Below, in pieces: positions 1 through 48,210 of a DNA stretch of 64,000 nt (position 1 is the stretch's first letter; each line of letters opens with the position of its first letter). Both the position numbers and the translations under genes were made by a program. Source of the stretch: Dictyostelium discoideum (Eukaryota); contig CM000151.3 of NCBI GenBank assembly GCA_000004695.1, positions 3,360,001-3,424,000 of the forward strand, written 5' to 3'. The notes under the pieces were generated by a model that saw only the letters and a list, made by a program, of their open reading frames with translations, was not told where the DNA came from and made no database searches.

Positions 1-514
1 TTCAATTTTTTTAATTACACAAAGTGATACATTTACTCATTTAAGGGACCATTTTTCTTTTTATGTACTTCTTTATCTGAACCTAAAATTTTAATGAATT
101 CCCAATCTTCATTTTTATGTTCTAAAATTTCTGGGTTCATTTTTTTTTTTTTTTTTTTTTTTGTTTTCAAAACAAATTAATTATTGAAATTTCAGATTGA
201 ATATTTGTTTAAACCATCAAATAAAAAATAAAAAAATAAAAAAAAAAAAAAATTAAAAAAATGAAAATAAAAATAAAAAAAAAAAAAATTATAAAAAAAA
301 AAAAAAAAAATCTTTCTTAAATCTCGCCATTATAAATAGAAGTTCAAAATATAATTTAATTGTTTATTTTATATATTTTAGCCATTTTTGTTTTTTTTTA
401 ATTTTATTTTATTTTATTTTTATTTTTTTTTATTTTTTTTTTTTAGTTAGCACAAATTTTTTTTTTTTTTTGTAAATTTCATTGTTCATATAATTCTACA
501 ACAACAGTAAGAAA

Positions 515-3060
515 ATGGTTAGTCTTGATGAAAAATATAAATTCAAATACAGAGTAAATATTTTTTTTCTTTTTTTTTTTTTTTCTTTTTTTTTTTTAAA
601 GGGTTTGGCTCATCTGATAGAGCATTCAGAAATTTTAGAAAGATTTTTTATGAAAGATGGGAAAAAACTTATGCAGAATATAAAGAGGGTCCAGTTGGAG
701 GTGAATTCTTAATTAAAAATACAAAATTAAGATATCTTAAAAGTGAATTAATGATGAAAAAATTAGCAGTTGGTCGTACTTCTGATTTTGATTTCAATCT
801 ATTTGTTGATGTTTAGGTTAGTCATCCATGGAAAAATATACCATCAAGTCAATTAGAAAATGAAAATGAAATTATTTTAGCATGTGGTAGTCATTTTTAT
901 GAGGTATATATTCATATATACAATATAATATAAAATAATAATAATAATATTAATAATAATAATAAAATTACAAGTATTAACATATATATATATATATATA
1001 AAGGGATTTTATGATACAAATAATGATAAAGAACCAACTGAAAAATCAAGAAAATGTAATGAAGGTTGTGAACATAGTGAACAATTCAATTCATGGAATC
1101 ATTTAAAATTAGTTACACTTAAAGTTGTTGAGAGTATATTTGTATTGGATAAAACTATGAGTGTTGCAGATTGGACTAAACAACTTAATTCATGGACTGA
1201 TAATTCAGATGATTTGGAGTTGAAACCACTTTATCCACATTTAGATGAAATGGCAGAGGCGATGGTATATAAGTATCAAGCTGATGAAATGATTAAAGCA
1301 GGTAATGGGCAAGCAGCAATTCAATTCATTAGCATTGGATTATAGAGGTTTGACAGAGAATTTCATTTCTGATCTATACCTTTCAAGAGGAAAATGTTGG
1401 TTACAGTGGTGTGAAAAGGTGAAGACTAGAATGCAACAGCATTTAAATATTGCGAAATCTGATATTGAAAGATTACTTTACATTCGTCCATGCAGGGCAG
1501 AGGGGTATGCTGTGATTGCAAAGTGTTTTACACTATTGGAAAAATCAAAGAAGGCAGCCTACTTTTATAAATTAGCTTTGGATCTTGAGCCAAATAATAA
1601 AAAGTATAAGGATAGCGTCAGGTCAGTAATGGGTACAAAACAGAAATCAGCATTTACCGAGCCGATAGATTCTGATAACGTTTTACCAATATGACAAGGG
1701 CGGGTACTTTACCAGAAATGGATACTGTTAAACTTGCTGCAGAGATATCAGAGCCTGAAATTGATTTTGGTTAGTGATGCATTGATTAAAGTAAATGTAA
1801 AGCAAAGAAGGGAATACTTCGATAAGAATCCATCATTGGAATATGAACCAGCTGCACAGACAAGTAAATTCTTTTATCAAGATTTAAAAAATGCTGAGAA
1901 AATGTTAATCAAAAGTAAAGGTTTAAATGAAACGGTGTTTGCTGATGTATTCGTTGCACCCATGGGTGATTATTATCGTAGTCAAGGTAATTTATAAAAG
2001 GCAAAGCAAATGTATACAAAAGCTACAAACTTATCAATTGCAATGTCAACTGGTTATAAAATGAATACTGGTATTGGTGAAGCAAATTTAAATTTAGGTA
2101 GATTATTATTATTGAAATCATCTGAATCATCTGCCATTTCAAAAGCATTGGAGAATTTTCAAAAATCTTTGGAATATAATGATGGTGAAAATAATATAGT
2201 TCAAGCTACATTTGAATTGGGTAAATTGTATTTACAAATTGATGGTCATGGCAAAGGTATCAATGTCACTAAAAATGGTAAATTAGGTTTAACATATTTA
2301 GAGGTTGCTTCAATCAAAGGCTCAAGTAAAGCAAGTCAAATCTTGGCTAATCTCTCAAAGAAAGCCACATCTAAATGGGAAGAAAGGTAAAGGTTGATCT
2401 CGATCAAAAAGTACCATTTGTATTTGCAAACGCTCAAGAAGCAAAGGTTAAAAAGTCTGCTAGAGAAATTCAAGTGATTAAAGAGTTTCGTCAATTATTA
2501 AAAGACCATGAAAATGATAAACTCATTAGACATAAAGAGTATGGTGGCTACTCAAAGGGGTTTCCAGAGAATCCAAGAATCACAATGAAGGATTATAAAC
2601 TTGTTGCTCAGTCTTCATTTGATCAAGGTGGTACAAACCCATTGGCTGATCTAATGCCAGACATTAGAACTGTCTTTGAAAAATGTTTTTTCCAAGTACA
2701 CTCGCCGCTCAACCGTTGGTCAGAGGTGATGATATCGAATTACTCTTATGGGACGTCCAAGGTTTCCCATGTAGATTCGCTGTCGAAGGTGGTCAATGTA
2801 TCGATCCTTCAAGCTTGAAAGTTGGTGGTAAATACTCGTTTATTGCCTTTTCAACATGTCGTTCTAAATTTGATAATCAAAAAATTCACGATTGTGATTG
2901 GATCATTCAAGGCCCCACAACTCCATCGCTATGCGCAAATTGTGGTAAAATTTGCACTTCAAAATGTACAACAAACTATTGTGATCGTGATTGTCAAACT
3001 GTTGATTGGCAAAGTGATCATAAATTAATTTGTGGTTTAAAATCTTTTAAAGACAGATGA
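515..3060 (+). pseudogene. Multi-exon gene encoding a TPR/Sel1-like repeat protein with a C-terminal MYND-type zinc finger (CANCGKIC..C..C..H..C). The 5' exons have normal AT-rich introns (~552-600, ~903-1002). The 3' 1.8 kb has at least 5 frame changes and in-frame stops (TGA ~1695, TAA ~1995) with no GT..AG intron signals, so it is probably decayed or frameshifted.
   Basis: Six-frame ORFs 1145-1345, 1305-1694, 1734-1997, 2010-2390, 2375-2818 and 2683-3060 tile the region in shifting frames. Cys/His spacing at 2930-3040 matches the C-terminal half of MYND. GC content here is clearly above the local norm. Confidence 0.4.
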
Positions 3061-3342
3061 GATGAAACACCAATTAAAAATTAAATTAAATAAAAAAAAA
3101 TTAAATTAAATAATAAATATTTTTGGTTTTATTACACCGAAATTTTATTTTAACCATAAGTGGTACCAATCATAACGTAGTTGTACCATTAATGGCTTGA
3201 TTGGCAGATTTGTATACTAACTAAAATTTGTTGTTGTTTTATTAGTTTTTTATTATTTTTTAATTTTGGAAAAAAAAAAATTTTGGCGCCAAAATAATAA
3301 AAAAAAAAGAAAAAAAAAAAAATTCATTCATTCATTTTGAAA

Positions 3343-3399
3343 ATGATTGATAATGAATACAACTTTCTAAATAGAAATAATAATAATAATAATAATAAT

Positions 3400-3473
<74 letters not shown>

Positions 3474-3552
3474 CAATAAAATAATTTTCCTTTTTCAATA
3501 TAAAAATAGAAAATTAAGATTTTGCCCAATTATTTCCAAAGATGTAAATACT

Positions 3553-3594
<42 letters not shown>

Positions 3595-5349
3595 TTTTAC
3601 TCACACTCACAAAACTATTAAACAAAGGAAATAAATAATTTTTTTTTGAATATATTTAATGAAATTGAAGAAACGGTACTTGATTTTAATAGTAAAGGGG
3701 GTACCACCAAAGAATTTATTAAATTTTTTAAAGATTTAATTACTTATTTTACAAATAATAATAATAATAATAATCAATACCTTAATGTTTATAATAATAC
3801 ATTCATTAATTGCTTAATTTATAGAATTAAACATTATTTAAGACGTATGTATAATTTTAATAAAATAAAATTCATTTAATCAAATAATATTTTATTAACA
3901 TAGTAAAAAAAAAAAAAAAACAAAAAAAAGAGAATGTTTATTCTTTAGAATTTTTAATTAGTCAAAAATCAACATTATTAAATGACCAAATTAAACAATT
4001 GAATCATAGTTTTTTAATTAATTCAATTTTAGCCCAATTATTTAAAATATCAGTTTATGATAATACTACTTTTATTTTAGATGATGATAATTCAAATATA
4101 TTAGATTCAATAATTGATTCATTTTTATCAATTATCTTAATATCAATTTCAAAATTAGATTCACTTAAAAGGTAAAAAAAAAAAAAAAAAAAAAAAATCA
4201 TTATCAGATTTTTTATCGTGTATTTTATAATATTTTAATTTACTATACTAATCTTAAATAAATTAATATTTTAGAGGAGGTACAATTAATAATAATAATG
4301 TTAGTTATAAAAGTAGAAATAGTAGAAATAAAAATAAATATGATAATGATGATGATTATGAAGAAGTAGAAGAAGAAGAAGAAGAAGAAGATAACGAAGA
4401 TGATGAATATAATCTTCAAAAATTTATATTCAACTTTTTAAAATTATTTAAAAAAGATAATCAAGATAATTTAGCACCAATAACATCAACATTTTGGGAT
4501 TACTTTAATTTATATATAAATAATAAAAATAGGAATAAAAAGTTTGAATTATACAATCAATCAATAATACATTACTTGAATATTACTTTAGAGATAACTA
4601 AAGCTTTATTAAAATTTCAAAAAAATAAAGATCATCAAAACAATAATAATAATAATTATTTAATATCACCAATTTCTAAACTTTTAAATTATCAATTTGA
4701 AAATAAATTTGAAAATTGGAGTTTAATTTCAAAATTAGTTTTAAATTTCATTAAAAAAAATACTCAAATATTAATAAATCTCACCACCGCCACTACTACT
4801 ACAACTACAACTACTACAAATAATAATAATAATAGTAATAATAGTAATAAAAATTATAATAATAATTTGGAATCAATAATAAATCAATTTTCAAAAATAA
4901 TGGTAATTTTATTTAGGTATATAGAGATAACATCACCATTAATTAGTTTAGATACACTATTCGAAGAGATTTATAAATTTATAGTTTTGTTATCATTTTT
5001 ACAAGAATCAGCATCAAATCCTTCTATTAATGATACTGCACCATCTTATAATAAAATTATAGAATTATTTAAACCAGATTATTCATCACCATCATCTTTA
5101 TCTTCCTCTTCTTTTTCAGATCTCTATTTAAAATCAAATATTGAACCAGCATCATTAGATTTAATTAATACGAGTTTATTTTTATGTTTAATAAATTACT
5201 ATAAAAGAAAATTAAATTCTCCTTCTCCTTCTACCACACCACCAAAATCAAATAACAATAATAACAATAATAACAATAACAATAATATAATTCAGAAATT
5301 GATAAATATATATAATAATGAATCACCAAGTATAGTATCAACATTATTA

Positions 5350-5425
<76 letters not shown>

Positions 5426-5658
5426 GTCAAATAACACCAATCGTATATAGAATTATAACATTTAAAAGAGCATTTAACAGTTTTTCATTTGAACAAATTA
5501 AAAATCCATATGAAGAATTATATCAACAATTTAAAAAGAGTAAATTGAATTCATCTTCTGTTCAAGTCATTAAAGAATTGGATACACCAATTTCAACATT
5601 TAAATGTTGGTTTTCAAATTTAATTTCAATTGCAGTTTTATGTATTGATAGTATTGGT

Positions 5659-5736
<78 letters not shown>

Positions 5737-7287
5737 TCAATAGTAACAACAACAACAACTACAACAACAACAACAACAACTACATGTGATCAATTAAAAA
5801 GAATTATAAAATCAATGACATTATTAATTGATTTTTCAAGATCAGAAACTATACTTTTACAAGCTGGTTATTTAATATTAAATGGTATTTTCAGTGTAAT
5901 GAATTTAATGATTCAATATCTATTTTCTTTTGAAGATATTTTAATTTCATTAATTAAAGATATTACAACAATCATTGTAACAAATATTTTTGATAAAATG
6001 TATCCAAATCAAAATTTGAAATCATTATTTTCAAATATTAATAATAATAATAATAATAATAATAAAAATAATTTTAATAGAGAATTATGGTCAAAATTTA
6101 TTTTACATCAATATATTAGGTTTATAAAAAAAGATTCAAAATATTTTAATAATTTCTCATTCAATTTAGAAAGACATTTTAAATCATTTGAAAAATCAGT
6201 TCAAGAGAAATATATCGAATATATTCATTTATTAGTATCAACTTTTGTAAATAATCCAATTAATAATTTATCATTATTAAATAATCAAAATAATAATAAT
6301 AATCAAAATAATAATAGATATAAGATAGTATCAAATAATCAATCATTTTTTAATCCAATAACAGTTCAACTTTATTCAATTTATACAAAACAATCAATTA
6401 ATTTTATAAAGAGTATTGGTGATTGTTTAATTGGGAAATTTAAATTAACAACTTTACCACCAACAACAACAACAACGACAACAACTACAATTGATATTAA
6501 TCAATACTTTTTAAATATTAATATACCACCAACATTTAAAAATAATAATAATTTTCAAATTTCAAATGATTATAATATATTTTTAATATCAATTTATTGT
6601 TTTACAAAGATATTAAAAGATGAAGAATTTAATGAACATTTTTTAAAGAGATATCAAAATCAATTTATAAATATATTTATGTTGGTACTAATTGATCCAA
6701 TTTTATTATTTGAAATTGAATTACATCAAAAGTATATCGATCAATTCCTTTTACTATCAATACCGACTTCAACTTGTTTAGTATTTAAAAATCATTACCT
6801 TTTCAAGGATAATCAATTCATGTTATCAACAAATCTTTCAAAAACTTCTGAAAAAAGAAAATTAATTTTACAATTTTTAAAAAGAATTGAAAATCAATAT
6901 CAAATTGATAAACCATTACCAACTTCAAAAATTAATTTAACAATTACAACAACAACAACTTCACCCCAAAAAACTTTACCACAACAACAAAAACAACAAC
7001 AACAACAACCTTCAAAAATACCAGAATTCGATTGGTTCGATTATCAAATTAGATTTTTAAATTCATTTGAAGAAAGATCAAAAGTTTATGATTTAGAGAA
7101 TAAACATATATCAAACAGTATTTCTAAAATGTCAGTTTTAATGGCCTATGTAAATATGGTAGTTGTAATTTGTCCACATTTTATTATTGATTTAAAAGAG
7201 AGTAATAAAATTAATAATATTAATAATAATAATAATAATAATATAAATAATAATATAAATAGTAATAATACAATAAAAACTATAACA

Positions 7288-7349
<62 letters not shown>

Positions 7350-7808
7350 TCAAAAGAATTTAAATAATAATAATAATATTATTAGTAATAATAGTATTGG
7401 ATCAAAATTTATAGATTTATTTTTAAAAGATTTAGAATATAAGAATGTAAAAGATTTAAATCAATTGATTTATTCATTTGATAAAGTATTTCCAAATTAT
7501 AATTATTGGTTTTCAAAGATTTTCATTCACATATTAAAATCATTTGATCAACAAATGAATCAAAGGAAAAAGAAATCTTTTAAAAATTTATCAATTCATT
7601 TATTAAAATTTGAAAAGTTAAAATCTTTTATATTGAATGATTTATTTGGTTTTTATTTTAGTGGTAATGGTAGTGCTTGTATTCATACACAATTGGTTTT
7701 AATTAAATTTACAAAATATTTATTTAAAAATAATATAAAATATCAAGAAATTGATTTACATAATATAATTCAACATAATTTTATTTTAATTTTTAAATCA
7801 ATTTTTAT

Positions 7809-7891
<83 letters not shown>

Positions 7892-8502
7892 GTTTTATAA
7901 ATTTCAACCAAAAGTCAATATCAAGTAAAATTGAAATTTTTAAATTATTTAATTCTTTCCTTTATTGTTATTCTTCAAGATTGGATTTATTATCATTAAC
8001 AAATGAAAATGAAAATAGTAATAATAATAATAGTGATGAAAATCAAAATGATAATATAAATTTAATTATAATGAAATTAATCAAACATTTCATTAAAATT
8101 ATAATTCAAATAATTTATAATGATCCAATAAATCAAGTACAACAAAATTTAAAGGAATCTCATAATACAAGTATAAGAAATAGTTTAATTAAATTAAAAA
8201 CTTATTTCTTTCAAAGAAATACTAATAATAATAATAATAATATCATTGACTTTGAAAGATATCCAAATGAACAAACAATTATAGATAATAGGGATTCAAA
8301 AGAATTATTAGAGTCAATATTTAAATTTTTAATAACTCTTTATGATTTTGGTAATTTTGGAAGACAATTATTTTTTAAAACCTCTCAAAAAATCTCAAAA
8401 TACCTAATTTCAACACAAGCTAAAAATATTCTTACAAAAAGATATTTTATATTAATTGGTCAAATGCATTTTACCCAAAATATAATACCAATCAATTTTA
8501 TA

Positions 8503-8566
<64 letters not shown>

Positions 8567-8673
8567 GTAATAACCAAAATAATAACCAAAATAATGGTAT
8601 CATTCCCAAAGAAAAAATTGAAATGATGTATTTTAGAAGAGAGAGACTATTAAATAAATTTTTGAAAAAATAA
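3343..8673 (+). CDS. Large Asn/Thr-rich hypothetical protein of about 1680 aa. Proposed model: join(3343..3543,3628..3844,3949..4171,4275..8673).
   Basis: ATG at 3343; the ORF-track starts at 3337, 3646 and 4576 are TTG. The three donors are GTAAAT at 3544, GTATGT at 3845 and GTAAAA at 4172, and the acceptors at 3627, 3948 and 4274 keep the frame. The long ORF 4576-8673 continues upstream in frame to the 4275 acceptor. Several in-frame (AAT)n poly-Asn tracts. Confidence 0.5.
3361..3478. repeat. (AAT)n microsatellite of about 38 units, read in frame as poly-Asn in exon 1 of the 3343 gene
   Basis: Direct reading of the sequence. Confidence 0.9.
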
Positions 8674-8699
8674 AATTTAGCTTCTCCCTAATTAAAACA

Positions 8700-8935
8700 A
8701 AGTATTTTTTGTTTGTTAATTAAAATTTGTTTGTTTGTTGGTTGGTTTGTTTGATTGTTTGATTGTTTGATTGTTTGATTGTTTTTTTGATTGTTTTTTT
8801 GTTAGTTTTTTTGTTTGTTTTTTTGTTTGTTTGTTTTTTTGTTTGTTTGTTTGTTTTTTTGTTTGTTTGTTTGTTTTTTTGTTTGTTTGTTTGTTTTTTT
8901 GTTTGTTTGTTTTTTTGTTTGGAGAATCGATCCCT
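8700..8935. repeat. (GTTT)n/(GTTTGTTT) microsatellite immediately 3' of the 8673 stop and abutting the tRNA-Thr 3' end
   Basis: Direct reading: gtttgtttgtttgttttttt... repeated. Confidence 0.9.
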
Positions 8936-8961
8936 TGATCTATTTAACAGAATTTTTTAAA

Positions 8962-9033
8962 AGGCTCCTATGAGGATCGAACTCATGACCTCTTCCTTAC
9001 TAGGGAAGCGCAATACCACTATGCTAAGGAGCC
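8962..9033 (-). tRNA. tRNA-Thr (anticodon AGT, decodes ACU)
   Basis: Reverse complement GGCTCCTTAGCATAGTGGTATTGCGCTTCCCTAGTAAGGAAGAGGTCATGAGTTCGATCCTCATAGGAGCCT folds as a 72-nt cloverleaf with a 7/7 acceptor stem, a GTTCGATCC T-loop (box B) and a CTAGTAA anticodon loop. A TTTT Pol III terminator lies just downstream (plus 8951-8958). Confidence 0.85.
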
Positions 9034-9169
9034 ATTTTTGAAAAAAAAATTTCAAATAGCAATATTTCACAGATTAATCAGAATTAATTTTTCTCAATAA
9101 TAATTGTTATCCATTTTATTTTATTTATTCAAAAATTTTTGGTCATCCTTCAGACCCCTTGAAAAAGAT

Positions 9170-9850
9170 AATTAATAAATATTATTAAGAACATTGTGAA
9201 ACAATTTATATTGATAATCCAAGAGATGTTTTAGATTCAATTATTTCAGAATATAGAAAAGTAAATGGAAAAGAAGAGTGTTCAGTTATTTCAATTACAA
9301 ATGAATTTTAGCTGCAGTTGAAAATAATAGTGCTACAATGAAATGGTTTACTCTAGAGTAATGTAATCGCAAAGAATTTCAATTAAAACAATTACCAAGT
9401 GAAAATAAATTAATTAATTTATCTCACCGGCCATTGACACCTTTATTTAATGCTTCATTAAAAGAAGTATTAAGATTATACCCACCAGTAGCATTGGTGT
9501 ATCACGTTTAGTAATTGAAGAATTTACAATTGATAATGGTAAATATACATTTCTAAAAGGTGCTCAAATCATTCAATCACTTTATTCAATATTTAGAGAC
9601 GAAAAATACTGGTCATCACCAAATGAATTTATTCCAGAAAGATTCATTTATCAAAATAATTAATCAAATAATTGGTTTCCATATAGTATTGGTGTTAGAA
9701 ATTGTGTTGGTATGGGTTTCTCCCAAGATGAATTATATCTCTTATTAACCAATTTGGTCTTAAATTTCCATATTTTACCACCATTTGAAAATACTAAAAT
9801 TGATGGTACTCCAATTTTTGGTTTTTCATTTAAACCAAAACTTAGATAAT
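9170..9850 (+). pseudogene. Cytochrome P450 pseudogene, 3' fragment running from the I-helix to the heme-binding loop and C-terminus, interrupted by in-frame stops and frameshifts
   Basis: Shifted frames encode I-helix-like AAVENNSATMKWFTLE, the K-helix/PERF region KEVLRLYPPVALVYHV.., EFIPERF and the heme loop PYSIGVRNCVGMGFSQDELYL, then ..FKPKLR*. Several TAA/TAG stops interrupt it. The N-terminal half of a P450 is absent. Confidence 0.6.
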
Positions 9851-10119
9851 AAAAAATTTGATTTTTCCTTTTAGAAAATTTTTTACTATTATTTCTTATT
9901 ATGTGTTTTGCTAGAATGGCCAAAATCCAACATATCTAAGCCACCGTTTTTTATTTATTATTGGATTGTGTATTTGGTGACGAACAATCTCCAGTTTTTT
10001 TTTAATTTTTTTAAATAATGTCCATCAATTTTATCTAGATTAAGTTTTTATTTAATAAATGTTTAAAGGATTAAAAAGGAGTCGAACATATGATCCTATT
10101 AATGAAGTTGAAAAATCAT

Positions 10120-10202
10120 TGCAAGAGGCGAGATTCGAACTCGCGAACCGAATGGATGAGATCTTAAGTCACACGGATTTAACCAGACTTTCCTACCCTT
10201 GC
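10120..10202 (-). tRNA. tRNA-Leu (anticodon TAA, decodes UUA), long variable arm, 83 nt
   Basis: Reverse complement GCAAGGGTAGGAAAGTCTGGTTAAATCCGTGTGACTTAAGATCTCATCCATTCGGTTCGCGAGTTCGAATCTCGCCTCTTGCA has the acceptor stem (one G-U pair), D-arm, a CTTAAGA anticodon loop, a long extra arm and a GTTCGAATC T-loop. The anticodon stem has one mismatch. A T-run lies downstream on the minus strand. Confidence 0.8.
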
Positions 10203-10234
10203 TTTGTATGTAAGTTGTAATAAAGCTTGTTAGC

Positions 10235-10248
10235 TTTATAAATATATA
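10235..10248. repeat. 5' target-site duplication TTTATAAATATATA of the TRE5-A insertion (3' copy at 17252-17265)
   Basis: Identical 14-mer directly abutting both element ends. Confidence 0.7.
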
Positions 10249-10250
10249 TG

Positions 10251-11870
10251 GATTATTTCATTTTTCATATAAAAAAGACTTAAAAAACAAATAAATAAAT
10301 AAATAAACTATCTTAAAAAGCCATCTTTTTACTTTATTGTAATTTATTATTTGTTTCGTTTTGAGAATTTTGCGTAGCAAAATTTTCAAAAAAAAGCAAA
10401 AAATAATCAGATCGAAAAAAAACAAACAACAACAACAATCTCTTTTTTTGATTATTTCATTTTTCATATAAAAAAGACTTAAAAAACAAATAAATAAATA
10501 AATAAACTATCTTAAAAAGCCATCTTTTTACTTTATTGTAATTTATTATTTGTTTCGTTTTGAGAATTTTGCGTAGCAAAATTTTCAAAAAAAAGCAAAA
10601 AATAATCAGATCGAAAAAAAACAAACAACAACAACAATCTCTTTTTTTGATTATTTCATTTTTCATATAAAAAAGACTTAAAAAACAAATAAATAAATAA
10701 ATAAACTATCTTAAAAAGCCATCTTTTTACTTTATTGTAATTTATTATTTGTTTCGTTTTGAGAATTTTGCGTAGCAAAATTTTCAAAAAAAAGCAAAAA
10801 ATAATCAGATCGAAAAAAAACAAACAACAACAACAATCTCTTTTTTTGATTATTTCATTTTTCATATAAAAAAGACTTAAAAAACAAATAAATAAATAAA
10901 TAAACTATCTTAAAAAGCCATCTTTTTACTTTATTGTAATTTATTATTTGTTTCGTTTTGAGAATTTTGCGTAGCAAAATTTTCAAAAAAAAGCAAAAAA
11001 TAATCAGATCGAAAAAAAACAAACAACAACAACAATCTCTTTTTTTGATTATTTCATTTTTCATATAAAAAAGACTTAAAAAACAAATAAATAAATAAAT
11101 AAACTATCTTAAAAAGCCATCTTTTTACTTTATTGTAATTTATTATTTGTTTCGTTTTGAGAATTTTGCGTAGCAAAATTTTCAAAAAAAAGCAAAAAAT
11201 AATCAGATCGAAAAAAAACAAACAACAACAACAATCTCTTTTTTTGATTATTTCATTTTTCATATAAAAAAGACTTAAAAAACAAATAAATAAATAAATA
11301 AACTATCTTAAAAAGCCATCTTTTTACTTTATTGTAATTTATTATTTGTTTCGTTTTGAGAATTTTGCGTAGCAAAATTTTCAAAAAAAAGCAAAAAATA
11401 ATCAGATCGAAAAAAAACAAACAACAACAACAATCTCTTTTTTTGATTATTTCATTTTTCAAATAAGAAAGACTTAAAAAACAAATAAATAAATAAATAA
11501 AATATCTTAAAAAGCCATCTTTTTGCTTTATTGTAATTTATTATTTGTTTCGTTTTGAGAATTTTGCGTAGCAAAATTTTCAAAAAAAAGCAAAAAATAA
11601 TCAGATCGAAAAAAAACAAACAACAACAACAATCTCTTTTTTTGATTATTTCATTTTTCATATAAAAAAGACTTAAAAAACAAATAAATAAATAAATAAA
11701 CTATCTTAAAAAGCCATCTTTTTACTTTATTGTAATTTATTATTTGTTTCGTTTTGAGAATTTTGCGTAGCAAAATTTTCAAAAAAAAGCAAAAAATAAT
11801 CAGATCGAAAAAAAACAAACAACAACAACAATCTCTTTTTTTGATTATTTCATTTTTCATATAAAAAAGA

Positions 11871-11877
<7 letters not shown>
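10251..11877 (+). repeat. Tandem array of 8 complete plus one partial 199-bp TRE5-A A-modules. Copy 7 carries about 5 substitutions; the others are identical.
   Basis: The same 199-bp unit (gattatttcatttttcatataaaaaagactt...caatctctttttttt) recurs at a 199-bp period. The six-frame track shows an identical 69-aa minus-strand ORF 8 times at 199-bp spacing, with the copy at 11452-11661 differing by a few residues. Confidence 0.9.
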
Positions 11878-11916
<39 letters not shown>

Positions 11917-11992
11917 GGAACCCAAGTTAATCAGAAAATTTCCAGATTTTTAACTTTTTAAAGAAAAATATAAAAGATAGAAAGAAAATAAA

Positions 11993-13327
11993 ATGAAAAT
12001 CACAAACAACACCACAAATATTAAGCAACACAAATGCCTACAAAAAATAAGCGAAATTGTGGATAAAACTCAATTAAAAAAAAAACAATTCAAATACGTC
12101 ATAAACATCAATCACGAACCAGACGATAAAATAAAAAAAGATTTAGAAAAAAGTTTGGACAAAAAAGATGTTTTAATCAAAAGTAATAATACATTCAAAA
12201 TTCTCACAGACAGTATTAGTACAGTAATCTATTTTGTAAATATGTTCGATGCAGAATTAAAAGGACAATTTATAACCACTCTAAGACCAAAAAATATGTA
12301 TACGGATTTCGATTGGTATAAATCACTCACAGAAATAGAATGGGTAATAGAAAATGAAGGATGTAAACTAATTAAATCTGAAATTAAAGGCGAAACTCTA
12401 ATTATCAAAACAGTGAAAAGAGTCGTAGAAGAATATGACACTATCATTGAACTAGACAATCTAACATTAATTGGTCACTCCAACAAAGGATGGAGAGATC
12501 AAACCTCATTACCAGAAAATCAAGAAGAAAACAAAAATAAAAAACAATCAGATGAACAACAACCACAATCTACATCAGAACAAATACCAAAACAAGGAAA
12601 AAGAACAATCATTATCCCACCAATCACCTCCTCATCTAATGATAAAACATTTATGGCCCTAGATGATACAGCTCAAAAGGTAATAGATGCATCACTAGAA
12701 AACGTAGATGAACTAACAAGAATAGAGAATGAGATCAATACCCAATCGATAAACAATCAAGAAATTAAAACAAAATCAGAAAAACCTATTGAACCACCAT
12801 CTCCATACAATACACCAATAAAACAACACGGCGAAACAAAGAGACTAACAACGGAAGAAAAACTTAGAGAGGTAAATGATATCTTCGACTTCACCAGCCC
12901 AAACACTGATGCAATAAGAAAAATAGAATTCCCACTTTCAATCCCTTCAAATCAATGGTTCTTCTCCTCTCCAATAAAACATATCATGAGTTTCAGCCCA
13001 ACCTATGGTACACCATCGAAAATTATCGATTCACCAAGTAAATTGTTAAACACACCAAAAAACAAACAACAAGACAAAACAAACAGGACCAACAAAACAC
13101 CAGTCAAACCAAAATTGGGTGAATATGGACAAAAAAGCATAAAAACAAAAATGGATGAAGATATAGACAACTTCAACAAGGAAATTCTAAAACAAATCAG
13201 TAAATCAAAAAACCCCACAAACACACAAGACCAACAACACAACGAACAAAGTAAAGATCAGTTAGAAGACAAAATAAACCAGAAACTTCAAAAGGTAGAT
13301 AAAAATCTACCCCAAATAAAACTATAA
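11993..13327 (+). CDS. TRE5-A ORF1 (444 aa, basic, Lys/Gln-rich), beginning inside the B-module
   Basis: Uninterrupted ORF. Its first 81 codons are duplicated at 16896-17141. Confidence 0.8.
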   Translation: MKITNNTTNIKQHKCLQKISEIVDKTQLKKKQFKYVININHEPDDKIKKDLEKSLDKKDVLIKSNNTFKILTDSISTVIYFVNMFDAELKGQFITTLRPKNMYTDFDWYKSLTEIEWVIENEGCKLIKSEIKGETLIIKTVKRVVEEYDTIIELDNLTLIGHSNKGWRDQTSLPENQEENKNKKQSDEQQPQSTSEQIPKQGKRTIIIPPITSSSNDKTFMALDDTAQKVIDASLENVDELTRIENEINTQSINNQEIKTKSEKPIEPPSPYNTPIKQHGETKRLTTEEKLREVNDIFDFTSPNTDAIRKIEFPLSIPSNQWFFSSPIKHIMSFSPTYGTPSKIIDSPSKLLNTPKNKQQDKTNRTNKTPVKPKLGEYGQKSIKTKMDEDIDNFNKEILKQISKSKNPTNTQDQQHNEQSKDQLEDKINQKLQKVDKNLPQIKL

Positions 13328-16300
13328 AGAAAAACACAATAAGAATAGGTGTTTGGAACGTCCAAGGATCCAACACCATCCAATCTGCCAGCATAATAAA
13401 CACCGTATTAGACAACAACAAGCTGGACGCAGCACTTCTAACTGAAACAAATATAAAAACAAATAAAATTTACTCAATAAATCAACAATATAAAAACAAA
13501 ATAACACACCACGCACCAATTGATAAAACAGGACAAGGGGTGTCACAAATCATCATCAACACCCAAATAAAAACAACAACAAAAACAATAAACGAAAGAA
13601 TTATATCTTCCGAATGGATGATTGCAAAAACACAGATCAAATGCACAACCATTTATGCCCCAGCAAAGTCAAACGAAAGACATGAATGGTATAAGGAAAA
13701 TCTCACAGAAGAAATACTACACAGCGATATTATAACTGGAGACTTCAATGTAGACTGTTCAGTGGATAATAACCTTAACAAATATATTAAAACAATCTTC
13801 GACGAATTCGAATTTACAGAAATTAAGAATGGAATCACATTTCCAAGAAACAAATCAACCATCGATAGGGTCTTTGTCTCAAAGAAGATACTCCATCTAA
13901 ACCCAATAGTTACTACTAAGGAAATCAAATTAAAATCTGATCACAACATGGTAATCATTGAATTAAAAATACCAGAATACGAGCAACAAAAGAAAGGAGA
14001 AAGACTATGGAGACAAAACCTAGAAACTCTCAAAATGAATTCAACCAGCCTCAAAATTAATAAAACAATTAAATACTACAATAAAAAATTCGAAGAGAAC
14101 ACCAGCAAATGGTACAAATTAAACATTTGCGAACAATGGTTGAAACTAAAAGATGAAATAAAGAAACTGTCAATTAATATAGAAATTAGAGAAAGCAATA
14201 AAACCAAAAACAAACTAAAAGAACTCGCAGAAAAACTCGAAACAGCCAAAGATTCAAGAGCAATCTTCCTTAAAGAAGAGATCAACAATATTCTAAAGGA
14301 ACAAGTAAGAATAAAACAAGCAAACCAAACCAACACCCACATCAACAACAAAGAAACACCATCAAAATACTTAACCAGAAGGTTAAAAGTCCAAAGAAAG
14401 ACAAATGAAATCCCTCAAATTCTAGATCCAAGCAACAATTGTTTGGTAACAAAACACGAGGATATCCTCGAAGTAGCAAGAAGATATTACGAGAACCTGT
14501 ACCAGAAGAGAGAATGCAACGAAGACACTCACCACGAACTCCTAAAAACATTCAATAAAAGGATTGATCAAAAGATATTGGACGAAATTAATCAACCAAT
14601 AGAAGGATATGAAATCAGACTAGGCATTGAAAAAATACAAGAAGGAAAAGCACCTGGTAAAGATGGACTCCTTCCAACATTTTACAAAAACCACATTAAT
14701 GAAATTCTACCAATAATATCAAAACTATACAATCACTTCTGGAACACAACAATCCCAAAGGACTTCAAACAAGGGATATTGATTACTATATATAAAAACA
14801 AAGGAGACCCAAACAACCTGGATAATTATAGACCAATAACACTTCTAAATGTCGATTACAAAATCTATTCGAAAATAATCAACAATAGGATCCTGAAGTT
14901 CTTAAACAAAATAATCTCACCATTCCAAACTGGATTCGTACCAAGAAGACTACTGCACGATAACATCATCACCTTAAACTCAACAATAGAAATAATAAAA
15001 CGAGAGATTAACACAAAAGAGGATATGGAACCAATCATAACATTTTATGATTTTGAAAAAGCATTCGATTCAATCTCACATAACGCCATTCTACGTACTC
15101 TTGCACATCTAAAACTACCACTCAAAATGGTCCTCACAATAATGAACTTACTCAATGAATCAGAAACATCAGTGTACATCAATAACTCATTATCTAAAAG
15201 CTTTACATCAAAAAGAGGAACCAAACAAGGTGATCCTATCTCTCCCACTATCTTCGCATTAGTGGTTGAATGCATGGCAACTACTATAATAAATGACCGC
15301 TGCATCAATGGTGTAACCAAAGAAACCATTAAAATACTACAGTTCGCCGATGATACAGCAACAATAGCATACAACTTTATGGACCATTTCCTCATGAATG
15401 AATGGATCAAGAAGTTTTGCCAAGCAACCAGCGCAAAAATAAACCAAACCAAATGCTCGTGTATCACTTTCAAATGGAACACCAGAACGCTATACACCGT
15501 CATAAAATCAAACGAAAGGTACCTCGGCTTTGACTTCAACAATAAGGGTATCAAATCCAAAATCAATACAATCTCAGACAACATCAGAGCTAAACTAGTA
15601 ACATGGAACTCAACTTCATCAACCTATATGGGCAGACTCATAATGGCAAAAACATATGCACTATCTCAGTTAACGTTCCACACTTACATCAACACCACAC
15701 CACAACACAATAGTATTGAAAATAACATCGTAAAATTCGTTTTCAACACAAAATCTAAAAACTCTCTTTCACTACAAAGAAGACAAAACAACTATATCAA
15801 TGGTGGCCTAAACTTATGGAACCTGAAGACAAGAGAACTAGCACAGAAAGCATGGTTATTCGAAAGATACCTCCACCAAAGAGTAAGTAACACTCCTAGT
15901 TCATATATAAAACTGTGGGAAGAGGAACTCAAAAACAACAACAACAACAAAACAACAACAAAACAAAATCAACTACAACTACACTGGCAATGCAAGCAAG
16001 CATGGACCCAATTAAAAACTCCACAAAATAAACAAACACACTACGAACACCTCCCAAAATTAAAAAAAATATACGAAGATATGATGACAACTCAATCTCC
16101 TGAACACAACAAATTCATACCAACTCCTGGCCAAAAAGAAATAATGACCAAAATTAATAGCAAACACCTTCCATTTAAAGAAATCAAAAAAATAATAAAC
16201 ATGAAAGGTAGAGATCTATTATGGAGATACACACTGAAAGCACTACCAAAAATATACAACATGCCATGCCAACAGTGTGGGGAAGATGAGACCTCAGAAC

Positions 16301-16761
16301 ATATATTCTTCAACTGCAAAGCCCACATCAAAAACACACAAGAAATCTTCAACTACACCCTAACTAAGTGTGGACACACCACTCACACCTGGAATGTGAA
16401 GATTTTAAACCATCTACAAATTGCACTAGTAGCCAATTTAATAGCTATTATATTCGATAAAATCTGGCACAAAAGAAATAAACTCATTCACGATGAAAAA
16501 GAAATAATAATTCACAGACAACAAGTCATACGTGAACTAATTAAAACACAAAGAGCTGCATGGGACAGGACACAAGCGGTTATAAACAAAACATTAAGAA
16601 TCAAATCAAAGCAACGGCCAGAAGAACAAAATAAATTAGACTCACTAATCTCGCTAAAGCTATTACAATTTAGCAGACAATGGAACTCACCTCTTCACGC
16701 AATAGAACTTCCTAAACATCTCAAAAAATACAATAATTCACTCAGTACTTTCTATAAATAA
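13303..16761 (+). CDS. TRE5-A ORF2: apurinic-type endonuclease + reverse transcriptase + C-terminal Cys-rich (CCHC-like) domain. The frame is open from 13303, in the -1 frame relative to ORF1 with a 25-nt overlap; the first ATG is at 13540.
   Basis: N-terminal IRIGVWNVQGSN...TETNIK (APE/L1-EN-like) is encoded upstream of the first Met. RT motifs are FYDFEKAFD, KRGTKQGDPISPTIFALV and LQFADDTA. The C-terminal CQQCGEDETSEHIFFNCKAH is CCHC-like. Confidence 0.85.
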   Translation, partial: KSTPNKTIKKNTIRIGVWNVQGSNTIQSASIINTVLDNNKLDAALLTETNIKTNKIYSINQQYKNKITHHAPIDKTGQGVSQIIINTQIKTTTKTINERIISSEWMIAKTQIKCTTIYAPAKSNERHEWYKENLTEEILHSDIITGDFNVDCSVDNNLNKYIKTIFDEFEFTEIKNGITFPRNKSTIDRVFVSKKILHLNPIVTTKEIKLKSDHNMVIIELKIPEYEQQKKGERLWRQNLETLKMNSTSLKINKTIKYYNKKFEENTSKWYKLNICEQWLKLKDEIKKLSINIEIRESNKTKNKLKELAEKLETAKDSRAIFLKEEINNILKEQVRIKQANQTNTHINNKETPSKYLTRRLKVQRKTNEIPQILDPSNNCLVTKHEDILEVARRYYENLYQKRECNEDTHHELLKTFNKRIDQKILDEINQPIEGYEIRLGIEKIQEGKAPGKDGLLPTFYKNHINEILPIISKLYNHFWNTTIPKDFKQGILITIYKNKGDPNNLDNYRPITLLNVDYKIYSKIINNRILKFLNKIISPFQTGFVPRRLLHDNIITLNSTIEIIKREINTKEDMEPIITFYDFEKAFDSISHNAILRTLAHLKLPLKMVLTIMNLLNESETSVYINNSLSKSFTSKRGTKQGDPISPTIFALVVECMATTIINDRCINGVTKETIKILQFADDTATIAYNFMDHFLMNEWIKKFCQATSAKINQTKCSCITFKWNTRTLYTVIKSNERYLGFDFNNKGIKSKINTISDNIRAKLVTWNSTSSTYMGRLIMAKTYALSQLTFHTYINTTPQHNSIENNIVKFVFNTKSKNSLSLQRRQNNYINGGLNLWNLKTRELAQKAWLFERYLHQRVSNTPSSYIKLWEEELKNNNNNKTTTKQNQLQLHWQCKQAWTQLKTPQNKQTHYEHLPKLKKIYEDMMTTQSPEHNKFIPTPGQKEIMTKINSKHLPFKEIKKIINMKGRDLLWRYTLKALPKIYNMPCQQCGEDETSEHIFFNCKAHIKNTQEIFNYTLTKCGHTTHTWNVKILNHLQIALVANLIAIIFDKIWHKRNKLIHDEKEIIIHRQQVIRELIKTQRAAWDRTQAVINKTLRIKSKQRPEEQNKLDSLISLKLLQFSRQWNSPLHAIELPKHLKKYNNSLSTFYK

Positions 16762-16814
<53 letters not shown>

Positions 16815-16819
<5 letters not shown>

Positions 16820-17110
16820 GGAACCCAAGTTAATCAGAAAATTTCCAGATTTTTAACTTTTTAAAGAAAAATATAAAAAATAGAAAGAAAATAAAATGAA
16901 AATCACAAACAACACCACAAATATTAAGCAACACAAATGCCTACAAAAAATAAGCGAAATTGTGGATAAAACTCAATTAAAAAAAAAACAATTCAAATAC
17001 GTCATAAACATCAATCACGAACCAGACGATAAAATAAAAAAAGATTTAGAAAAAAGTTGGAACAAAAAAGATGTTTTAATCAAAAGTAATAATACAATTC
17101 AAAATTCGAA
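16815..17110 (+). repeat. 3' duplicate of the TRE5-A B-module plus the first 81 ORF1 codons, about 98% identical to 11912-12205, flanked by internal oligo(A) tracts (16763-16814 and 17108-17128)
   Basis: Direct alignment of cctgggaacccaagttaatcagaaaatttccag...aaaagtaataatac at both locations. Divergence begins near 17100. Confidence 0.85.
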
Positions 17111-17740
17111 ACAAAAAAAAAAAAAAAAAAAAGTAAACTAACCCCTCTTTTAGAGACCCTGTAAAAAAAAAAAAAAAAAATAAAATAAAATGAGATCTAG
17201 CATCTCAAGGAGAAGCAAATAATAATTGCGTTATCCAATTCAAAAAAAAAATTTATAAATATATAATTAATAATTATATAATTGAATAATACTTTGTTAT
17301 CTTTATTTAATATTAGTTTATATTTATAATATTCAATATTGTTTATAAAATTATTCTTTAGTATTTATATTATTTATAATGAGTTGACAGTATTATTATT
17401 ATTATTATTATATTATTTAAATGTGTGTCAACTATAATTAGTAATGTAATATGCATATTTAATATCTATTAATTTTATAGAGTAACTTTATTACAAAGTT
17501 ATTATTTTTAACAAGTTAAAGCAATTTTTTCTTTTTTTTTTAGAAATTATTTAATTTTTTTTTTATAAATTTTATTTTTTTATTTGCTTTCGATGAAATT
17601 TTTATTTTAATAGCAAATAATTTGAGAACTGATACATTTTTATTTTTGTTGTACTTTAAAAAAATAAAAAGAAAACAATTATATTTCTAAATTAATTTTT
17701 ACAATTTAATAAATAATTTTTTTTTTTTATTTTTAATATT

Positions 17741-19158
17741 TTAACTTGGATCTTTTAAAGAAGAATTAATTAGATCACTTTTGCTATTACTAAAACTTGT
17801 TGAAGATTTATTTGAATTTTCAATTTCAATTGAAATTTCCAAAGTATTAAAATTTGAATTTGTATTACCACTATATCCTAAATCAAATGTTGAACTCTTT
17901 TTACCTTTAGAATTACTATTTGAATTTTCCATTTCACTAGAACTATCATTATGAGTTTTAATTGATTTAAATAATACATAAACTTTCCATTTACCATCTG
18001 ATAATACTAACATTACAACTAACTAATAATAATAATATAAAAAAATAATTTTATTAATAATTAATAATATTTTTTTATAATTGGTGTAATTAATTTTATT
18101 TTTTAAAATATTAAAAATATTTACCAATTGAAAAAATTCTATTACACCAACAATAAATAATTTTAAATATTGTCTTGGTGTTTCATAAGTGTCTGTATAA
18201 TACATATTGAAAATAAGTTCTTGTATGATAATTGTTACTGCTACAAAAATAACTGTTGATAATAAAATCTTGGTTTTTAAAATCATAATATCAAAATGAC
18301 TAAATGGTGTTGACTTTTTATGTTTTTTTAAATGTCTTAATAAATAATAACCATTAAACTTTTTAAAAAAAAAATATTAAATAATTAAAATTAATACCAT
18401 TAAAAAAATAATAATAATAACTAAAATAATAATAATAATAATAAAATTAATTACCGAAACTATTGATGCATAAATTAAAAGTAAAATTAAAAATCCAACA
18501 GACTCTGCTGTTTCAATATTTTTACGCAAGGTTATACTTGAAACTGTAAATTGATAAATTATAATAACAAGGGCAAAAATAAATGTTGAATAATTAATTG
18601 GTTTTGCTCGATTTAGTCTAACTTCTTCTGAAATAAAAAATTTATACATAATAAGTAACCCTTTTTTTAAAAAATAAAAATAAAAATAAAAAATTAATAA
18701 TTATATTAAAACATAAAGAAAAAAATTAAAAACTATATGATTCTACTTACAATAATGTTGAATAAAAACCCAAGCAAGGAAAATTGCTGCAGTACCTAAT
18801 GAAAAGAAAAAAAAATTTGGTGTTCCAATACCTAAAAATAATTTGTTTAGAATTATTATTGATTGAATTTTTAAAATAAAAAAATAAAAATAAAAATAAA
18901 AAATTTACCTAATTGGTGGTTATCATAGAAAAATGCTGTTTGAATTGTTCTTAAAATACAAAATAAAGATTGAAAAAAAAATACAAAAAATCTTGTTGTA
19001 GTTTTTGATTGTTTTTTAATCATTTTAAGAATTTCTAAAAATGCTTGATAAAAACATATAATAAAAAAATATGTATATGCTATTAATCTTAAACCCATAA
19101 ATGAATATGTTAATTTATCAAATGAATCTGAACCTGTAAAATATTCTGTTGATTCCAT
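17741..19158 (-). CDS. Multi-exon gene for a hydrophobic multipass membrane protein of unknown family. ATG at 19158, first donor about 18912, with further exons around 18763-18838, 18480-18650, 18023-18290 and 17741-18010.
   Basis: A string of minus-strand ORFs (18871-19158, 18377-18649, 18023-18286, 17741-18013) encode TM-helix-like segments and are separated by AT-rich GT..AG intervals. Exact splice sites are not fully resolved. Confidence 0.45.
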
Positions 19159-47289: not shown

Positions 47290-48210
47290 ATGGCACAGTC
47301 AACAGTGTTACCAATGCATTGTTTATATGGCATATTTTTAGAAGGAAATTTAAAAATTCAAAAAAATGACCAAGAGGGATTAAAGAAATTTAAAGATAAT
47401 ATAAAGAAATTTACATTAGAATTGGATGAAATCGATAAGATATCACCACAATCTAGAATTGGAGGTGCAATTTGTTTTAGTTCTGATATTTGGGACACTG
47501 TAACAAAGAAAATATCAAAACCAAAAGAATTGAAATCCGTAAACACTTTAAGTTCATACATGCCAGGCACATCTCAAAGAGACATCCTCATTCATATTAT
47601 CTCTGATAGAATGGATACGTGCTTTAAACTAGCACAAGATACAATGAGAAATTTCGGTGAAGATCAATTAGATATCAAGCAAGAGATTCACGGATTTCGT
47701 AGAGTTGAAGAAAGAGATTTGACCGACTTCATCGACGGTACTGAAAATCCTGACGGTGACGAACTGCGTACACAATATGGTCTCGTTGCAGCCGGCCAGC
47801 CAAATGAATTTGGCAGTTACGTTTTCACTCAACGGTATGTTCACAACTTAAAGAAATGGTATCCTGAACCATTATCAGTTCAGCAAGATACAGTTGGAAG
47901 AACTAAAAAAGATTCAATTGAAATACCAAGAGATAAACGTCCAATTACTTCACATGTTTCACGTACTGATCTAAGTGAAAATGGTAAAGATTTGAAAATA
48001 GTTAGGCAATCTCTCCCCTATGGTCAAATTACTGGTGAAAAAGGTCTGATGTTTATAGCATACGCTTGTAGTTTACATAATATTGAAAAACAACTTCAAA
48101 GTATGTTTGGTCAATTAGATGGTAAACATGACCTACTCTTAAAATATACAACACCAGTAACTGGTAGTTTTTATTTTGCACCATCAAAAAAAGAATTATT
48201 AGAATTGTAA
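47290..48210 (+). CDS. DyP-type (dye-decolorizing) heme peroxidase, 306 aa
   Basis: A DFIDGTENP motif (DyP GXXDG), a distal Asp/Arg context and a protein size typical of class P/I DyPs. Confidence 0.75.
   Translation: MAQSTVLPMHCLYGIFLEGNLKIQKNDQEGLKKFKDNIKKFTLELDEIDKISPQSRIGGAICFSSDIWDTVTKKISKPKELKSVNTLSSYMPGTSQRDILIHIISDRMDTCFKLAQDTMRNFGEDQLDIKQEIHGFRRVEERDLTDFIDGTENPDGDELRTQYGLVAAGQPNEFGSYVFTQRYVHNLKKWYPEPLSVQQDTVGRTKKDSIEIPRDKRPITSHVSRTDLSENGKDLKIVRQSLPYGQITGEKGLMFIAYACSLHNIEKQLQSMFGQLDGKHDLLLKYTTPVTGSFYFAPSKKELLEL

Follow-up and report, generated by a model that had tools for sequence, protein, structure and literature searches.

The distant full-length relatives of the gene described here are two neighbouring paralogs on one contig of Heterostelium album PN500, PPL_08368 (857 amino acids) and PPL_08366 (890 amino acids), which are intact, uncharacterised and annotated as "MYND-type domain-containing protein." They were the only other full-length members found, and they share with the Dictyostelium gene an N-terminal region, TPR/Sel1-like repeats in the middle, a beta-rich region that is conserved, and a MYND finger at the C terminus (34% identity over 99% of the length), differing in that Dictyostelium has a single locus. 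More distant are the proteins P0031, P0008, and P0016 from other eukaryotes (TPR-Sel1-MYND or HEPN_DZIP3-TPR-Sel1), which match the N-terminal and TPR part weakly though significantly, with E values of 3e-6 to 6e-4, and have an analogous domain order, in the case of P0031 with a terminal MYND finger, but are only 24-27% identical and contain clear Sel1 repeats, which Pfam misses in the Dictyostelium gene. Our search of the literature for papers joining D. discoideum, pseudogene, and MYND returned none. Here we describe the Dictyostelium gene as it stands in a stretch of 64,000 nucleotides of Dictyostelium discoideum (GenBank assembly GCA_000004695.1, contig CM000151.3, positions 3,360,001 to 3,424,000), hereafter referred to as the window, where it occupies positions 515-3060 of the + strand and begins with an ATG at 515. 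We conclude that this copy is very probably a unitary pseudogene, neither processed nor duplicated, of the D. discoideum laboratory-strain lineage.

The frame-corrected conceptual protein of the window gene is 795 amino acids long. A protein search with this product, which a preliminary description of the stretch had proposed as a check, led to an intact protein: the sole match in the first search was ACTFIW_011930 (P0001), a hypothetical protein of 819 amino acids from an assembly labelled D. discoideum (GCA_054859355.1), with 89% identity over 100% of the query. The two genes have the same three-exon structure and flanking genes and are 92% identical in DNA and 89-91% identical in protein; however, ACTFIW_011930 has an intact open reading frame (ORF) and a MYND finger that passes the Pfam cut-off, whereas the window copy has six frameshifts, two nonsense codons, and a damaged finger. 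The locus of ACTFIW_011930 (L001) is collinear with window positions 14-10210 and 17600-18569 at 87-96% DNA identity and, because this collinearity holds on both sides of the gene, we regard ACTFIW_011930 as the syntenic ortholog. Its exons, which can be derived uniquely from the protein, lie at L001 10001-10039, 10156-10461, and 10556-12670. The window copy sits at the orthologous position and retains both introns at matching sites, with flanks collinear with L001 and with the locus of a third isolate (L005), and a tblastn search with P0001 detected no second copy of the gene in the 64-kb window. Intron 1 measures 116 nt in the ortholog (L001 10040-10155) versus 48 nt in the window, the 68-bp difference lying in a T/A-rich repeat, and intron 2 differs by insertions or deletions (indels) of 13 and 7 bp. 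The start of exon 2 at 602 follows from the AG at 600-601, which is the only acceptor available.

With regard to the origin of the ortholog, we note that the assemblies labelled Dictyostelium discoideum (L001 and L005), although collinear with window positions 1-18569, differ from it by 4-13% in DNA, with a synonymous divergence (dS) of 0.07-0.12, which far exceeds within-species diversity. Under the name D. discoideum, long-read assemblies have been deposited that come from cryptic sister species and from citrinum-like isolates (Holland et al. 2025, PMC12745789) and, because of the dS of ~0.07-0.12 against the window, the genome that hosts ACTFIW_011930 is probably that of such a cryptic sister species or citrinum-like isolate.

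Pairwise DNA alignment to the intact syntenic ortholog, relative to which all indels are given here in window coordinates, revealed 14 differences in total (Table 1): six frameshifting deletions, two nonsense codons, five in-frame indels, and one early stop. The preliminary description had reported repeated changes of frame on the + strand between 1290 and 3060, and this was borne out by tblastn, three-frame translation, and DNA alignment alike. Further, each of the breaks that it placed at 1300-1340, 1690, 1995, 2385, and 2700 was correctly located, as these correspond to the frameshifts after 1324, 1691, 1756, 2382, and 2695 and to the TAA at 1995-1997; in all, however, the breaks are more numerous than had been noted. 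The tblastn search with P0001, which covers residues 19-816 of the protein, provides independent evidence for the succession of frames, with matches in frame 2 at 995-1342, in frame 3 at 1317-2387 (interrupted by a frame-2 island at 1691-1759), in frame 2 again at 2384-2734, and in frame 1 at 2680-3072; the three-frame translations concur. Two other statements about the breaks did not survive the comparison. First, the 5' part, which by implication had been taken to be healthy, is not: the introns described there as normal and AT-rich are real (92-93% AT), but exon 2 has lost 1 bp after 609 and has a TAG at 814-816. Second, several breaks had been placed at homopolymer runs, and none is found there; the 1-bp losses are an A outside any run, TT to T, and GG to G, and none of the six frameshifts falls in a homopolymer of three or more bases. 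As the alignment shows, the window copy should be unable to give rise to a full-length product, and, given splicing at the canonical sites, translation that starts with the ATG at 515 would shift frame 8 nt into exon 2 and end near 710. Of the three explanations originally put forward, that of a pseudogene is therefore strongly supported by the six frameshifts and two nonsense codons seen against an intact syntenic ortholog, although the wording "recently inactivated" is only roughly right, as the copy has at least eight independent disabling lesions and yet is 92% identical to the ortholog.

Table 1. Parts of the broken gene in the window, with its lesions relative to the intact ortholog
Feature	Position	Strand	Description
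Exon 1	515..553	+	13 codons, MVSLDEKYKFKYR, undamaged; protein identical to ortholog exon 1; followed by GTAAAT donor
Intron 1	554..601	+	48 nt, 92% AT, GT..AG
Exon 2 remnant	602..903	+	-1 after 609, -3 after 673, TAG at 814-816
Frameshift 1	609..610	+	-1 (isolated A, no run), 8 nt past the exon 2 acceptor
In-frame indel	after 673	+	-3
Nonsense 1	814..816	+	TTG (Leu) in ortholog to TAG; Leu also in H. album
Intron 2	904..1003	+	100 nt, 93% AT, GT..AG
Exon 3 remnant	1004..3060	+	Segments alternating between frames 2, 3, 2, 3, 2, 1; single unbroken exon in ortholog (L001 10556-12670)
Frameshift 2	1324..1325	+	-5, one copy of tandem TTCAT TTCAT; 6-bp flanking direct repeat
Best TPR unit	1497..1598	+	AEGYAVIAKCFTLLEKSKKAAYFYKLALDLEPNN; Pfam TPR_1 27.7 bits versus cut-off 27.8; conceptual residues 279-312
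In-frame indel	after 1636	+	-3
Frameshift 3	1691..1692	+	-1 (TT to T); creates TGA at 1692-1694 in the incoming frame
Frameshift 4	1756..1757	+	-8 (GAGGCTGA); 2-bp flanking direct repeat
In-frame indel	1959-1961	+	+3 (CCC)
Nonsense 2	1995..1997	+	GAA (Glu) in ortholog to TAA
Sel1-like helical repeat, by eye	2205..2354	+	ATFELGKLYLQIDGHGKG...ILANL; Pfam Sel1 silent
Frameshift 5	2382..2383	+	-7 (AAAGAGT); 4-bp flanking direct repeat (AAAG)
In-frame indel	after 2434	+	-3
Frameshift 6	2695..2696	+	-1 (GG to G); 4 nt past a T6 run, outside the run
MYND zinc-finger remnant	2932..3033	+	Pfam zf-MYND 18.8 bits versus cut-off 22.7
In-frame indel	after 2957	+	-9, deletes QKC including one CxxC zinc-ligand cysteine of MYND
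Early stop	3058..3060	+	TGG in ortholog to TGA; ancestral stop TAA at 3082-3084; 8 codons trimmed

The direction of change can be read from H. album. Both PPL_08368 and PPL_08366 can be aligned over their whole length with the intact frame, through every break; both have kept the CSKC motif of the MYND finger and, where the window has the TAG, a Leu, which indicates that the intact state is ancestral and that of the window derived. The gene is older than the split between Heterostelium and Dictyostelium. The match to zf-MYND (PF01753) scores 26.1 bits in the intact ortholog, above the cut-off of 22.7, and the TPR matches of the ortholog are weak. In the window, C-TQKC-SKC has become C-TSKC through the 9-bp deletion, with the loss of a CxxC cysteine that is conserved in all relatives. 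The ancestral gene is accordingly a member of the zf-MYND family, to which its remnant in the window no longer belongs. As for the Sel1-MYND architecture pointed out in the preliminary description, an architecture of TPR and MYND is supported, with the best TPR (PF00515) unit just short of its cut-off, but the resemblance to Sel1 (PF08238) is one seen by eye, as Pfam gave no Sel1 match in the window translation (E ≤ 0.1) or in P0001 (E ≤ 1). Among the relatives, PPL_08368 reaches 17 bits versus a Sel1 cut-off of 30.7, and P0008, P0016, and P0031 pass. We also considered an N-terminal HEPN_DZIP3 domain (PF18738) and rejected it: Pfam found no match in P0001, PPL_08368, or the window translation, only P0008 matches, and weakly (20.6 bits versus a cut-off of 27), and the Rx4-6H motif of P0008 and P0016 aligns to dictyostelid residues that are not conserved.

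The family to which the gene belongs appears to be small. A phmmer scan of 1.84 billion representative proteins returned only two strong relatives, namely ACTFIR_009569 (P0002), a 347-amino acid model from the third isolate, and PPL_08368 (P0003), aligned at 34% identity from residue 2 through 814; the weaker matches (E values of 1e-6 to 1e-3) were TPR/Sel1 proteins, and a profile search added the neighbouring paralog PPL_08366 (P0037). Neither the phmmer scan of representative proteins nor the profile search returned a distinct family member from other dictyostelids, and the family may be patchily distributed or its members may have been merged or missed by database clustering. Similarly, no protein of the reference strain was returned by either search, which would fit a locus that either lacks an annotation or is listed as a pseudogene. 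An AlphaFold2 model built from a four-sequence alignment showed helical repeats at low confidence and was too poor to use (mean predicted local distance difference test score, 39.8; predicted template modelling score, 0.28).

We propose that the ancestor was a three-exon gene of ~820 codons whose product combined TPR/Sel1-like repeats and a C-terminal MYND finger with two conserved regions, one N-terminal and helical, the other beta-rich. In the laboratory lineage, this gene has gained at least eight independent disabling mutations together with in-frame deletions, one of which damaged the MYND finger, and, with selection lost, the sequence would now be drifting under the mutation spectrum of the species, in which small deletions exceed insertions and changes from G/C to A/T dominate. 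In D. discoideum mutation-accumulation lines, the indel rate is 2x the base-substitution rate, deletions are 4.5x as frequent as insertions, and changes from G/C to A/T are ~10x as frequent as those from A/T to G/C (PMC7466956). Compared with the ortholog, the coding sequence in the window shows 10 deletions but no more than 1 insertion, and a surplus of deletions that is unaccompanied by a substitution signature fits these data.

Some observations nevertheless weigh against this account. The ratio of non-synonymous to synonymous divergence (dN/dS) between the window copy and the ortholog is 0.30 (dS 0.124), not above that of an intact neighbour gene (0.27, dS 0.072), and polarisation with the outgroup assigns 5 replacements to the window branch versus 12 to the ortholog branch; both results imply that the substitutions bear no mark of prolonged neutral drift. 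The three 1-bp deletions, known from this one sequence, are individually less certain. Of the codon changes placed on the window-plus-stem branch in the 3' third of the gene, 25 are non-synonymous and 17 synonymous. To reconcile the low substitution signal with a unitary pseudogene, both a recent loss of constraint and an indel-rich spectrum would be needed: we infer that the loss of constraint dates to the later stretch of the branch between the laboratory lineage and the L001 lineage, after which small deletions by slippage or microhomology outpaced point changes.

The third isolate shows that the gene has been disabled more than once. Its model ACTFIR_009569 (347 amino acids; GCA_054859385.1) comes from the same locus, which in its 3' part matches the intact ortholog at 96-97% identity. 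In contrast to the window copy, however, it has no frameshifts and owes its state to a single clean deletion of 1.66 kb that spans L001 9970-11628, with ~7 bp of filler (L005 6735-6742) and no Ns, and was thus disabled independently. The deletion takes the 5' two-thirds of the gene, with the start codon, codons 1-473, and the promoter-proximal region, and the remaining 346 codons are open. Compared with L001, the remnant has ten codon differences that can be assigned to either isolate branch and three that cannot be polarised. We note that the annotated protein of 347 amino acids was called from this remnant and that its N terminus is invented. Because the deletion in L005 arose independently, we conclude that the D. 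discoideum species complex can dispense with the TPR-MYND gene or, at the least, has lost it repeatedly.

This raises the question of whether the locus is more than a random casualty. Three states are seen: the L001 isolate carries the gene intact, the near-identical isolate L005 has a copy with a truncated 5' end, and the copy of the laboratory lineage is multiply frameshifted. The repeated loss, together with distant relatives that combine HEPN-like, TPR/Sel1, and MYND modules, is the reason to suggest a gene of the conflict or immunity type that is polymorphic for presence and absence and repeatedly lost under fluctuating selection. We consider this account unlikely. Were it true, a decayed cytochrome P450 gene and a tRNA-targeted retrotransposon downstream, both described below, would mark a region of locally fast turnover.

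An alternative that we regard as very improbable, the second explanation originally offered, is that the breaks were produced by errors of sequencing or assembly, clustered in a gene that is otherwise intact. It could draw on the three of six frameshifts that are single-base losses (after 609, 1691, and 2695), the last of them only 4 nt from a T6 run. The other three are deletions of 5, 7, and 8 bp associated with direct repeats of 6, 4, and 2 bp, respectively, two lesions are base substitutions to stop codons, and the 9-bp loss takes a conserved cysteine, all of which speaks against such errors. Moreover, the adjacent gene is open over 1365 codons through long poly-Asn and poly-Thr tracts that include long AAT repeats, and four other ORFs of the window with about 1300-1900 codons, those of 1916, 1380, and 1320 codons among them, are likewise intact; an assembly that broke one 2.4-kb gene 14 times would be expected to damage such long ORFs too. 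A cytochrome P450 remnant 6 kb downstream displays the same kind of multi-base pair decay.

It is very improbable, in our view, that the gene still functions, whether by micro-introns, by programmed frameshifting, or by being expressed as several smaller products, for instance a C-terminal MYND fragment. In the window copy, individual stretches of 100-147 codons do remain open, and a product of 347 amino acids has been annotated from the 3' remnant in L005. Rescue by introns can be rejected, as the vicinity of every break is free of AT-rich stretches: no 50-bp interval in 1004-3060 attains 86% AT, and around the breaks the AT content is 64-80%, compared with 92-93% in the real introns, which are bounded by GT and AG. 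This agrees with the earlier observation that the breaks lack intron signals, and the ortholog continues as a single exon through every one of them. Full rescue would require six frameshift events of four sizes as well as read-through of two stops, and the MYND finger, minus one ligand cysteine, falls below the Pfam cut-off. Lastly, no gene product on record matches the ORFs of the locus in an exact look-up of two ATG-started ones that span lesions (2375-2818 and 1305-1694); by itself, nothing follows from this null result.

The composition of the gene had been described as atypical in its GC content and in its choice of the codons tcg, ccg, and gcc. Exons of D. discoideum average ~27% G+C; the window as a whole ranges from 12 to 36% G+C per kb and contains long homopolymer and AAT tracts. 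The comparison of G+C content at third codon positions (GC3) with neighbouring genes, also proposed at the outset, confirmed a real but modest enrichment: GC3 is 0.249 in the 3' part of the gene (1326-3057), 0.149 in the 5' part (515-1324), and 0.221 over the whole gene, compared with 0.234 in the intact ortholog, 0.06-0.22 in 12 host ORFs of the window, and 0.26-0.36 in retrotransposon ORFs. The claim about codon choice rests on just 2, 2, and 5 codons, respectively. At 62 sites the window copy carries A/T and the ortholog G/C, and at 40 sites the reverse holds (binomial p = 0.037), a skew in the direction expected for a slightly GC-richer gene that is now decaying. We infer that the raised GC3 is an ancestral composition slowly eroding and carries no foreign signature. 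The third explanation originally offered, that the 3' part was acquired horizontally and has not yet ameliorated, has next to no chance of being right: although the GC3 of 1326-3057 exceeds that of all 12 host ORFs sampled and of the gene's own 5' part, the syntenic ortholog is alike in composition, the value is near that of the host gene DyPA (0.218), the differences from the ortholog run A/T-ward in the window copy, the gene has two spliceosomal introns, TPR and MYND are typical of eukaryotes, and the whole protein, 5' and 3' parts included, aligns end to end with the two H. album proteins, its nearest homologs being dictyostelid.

The surroundings of the gene include a second pseudogene 6 kb downstream, a cytochrome P450 remnant at 9111-9840 (+). 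Its ortholog in L001 (19624-21182) is intact and encodes 460 amino acids (PF00067), whereas the window copy has lost the first ~800 bp, has deletions of 3, 4, 30, 1, 6, and 21 bp as well as stop codons, and retains no ORF of 90 amino acids or more. Between the two pseudogenes lies an intact gene at 3343-8673 (+) for a low-complexity protein of ~1685 amino acids, which contains the 1365-codon frame and has introns at 3544-3627, 3845-3930, and 4172-4274 (by homology to L001). No Pfam domain is recorded for this protein, and a 241-amino acid segment of it gave no match in a word-index search, the index being evidently incomplete, as it also missed P0002 and PPL_08368. On its other side, the TPR-MYND pseudogene is flanked by a gene for an FNIP-repeat kinase. 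Further downstream, an insertion of 7.4 kb at ~10210-17600 (+) is missing from L001. It contains ORFs at 11993-13327 and 13540-16761, the latter a reverse transcriptase (RVT_1, E = 2.9e-33), is rich in G+C for this genome (0.30-0.36) and strongly A-skewed, and lies directly 5' of a tRNA-Leu(UAA) gene at 10120-10202 (-). From its position, it is a putative tRNA gene-targeted non-long terminal repeat retrotransposon of the TRE5 type. The DyPA peroxidase of D. discoideum (PDB 8OHY and 7O9J) is matched at 100% identity over 306 residues by the ORF at 47290-48210, which assigns the window to D. discoideum of the laboratory (AX) lineage or to a nearly identical one.

Overall, the finding is an ordinary, textbook unitary pseudogene, the parent of which belongs to a small uncharacterised family of dictyostelid TPR-MYND proteins. 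Its significance hardly extends past annotation, for which it provides a clean unitary pseudogene in a model amoeba together with an intact ortholog for comparison. For scans of this genome, it serves as a reminder that a mildly raised GC3 alone is no evidence of foreign origin in D. discoideum and that frame-broken genes need not involve homopolymers. For the biology of the organism, it illustrates, on a small scale and in nature, the mutation bias towards deletions and A/T that was measured in mutation-accumulation lines, and it marks out an uncharacterised TPR-MYND gene as dispensable in at least two lineages.

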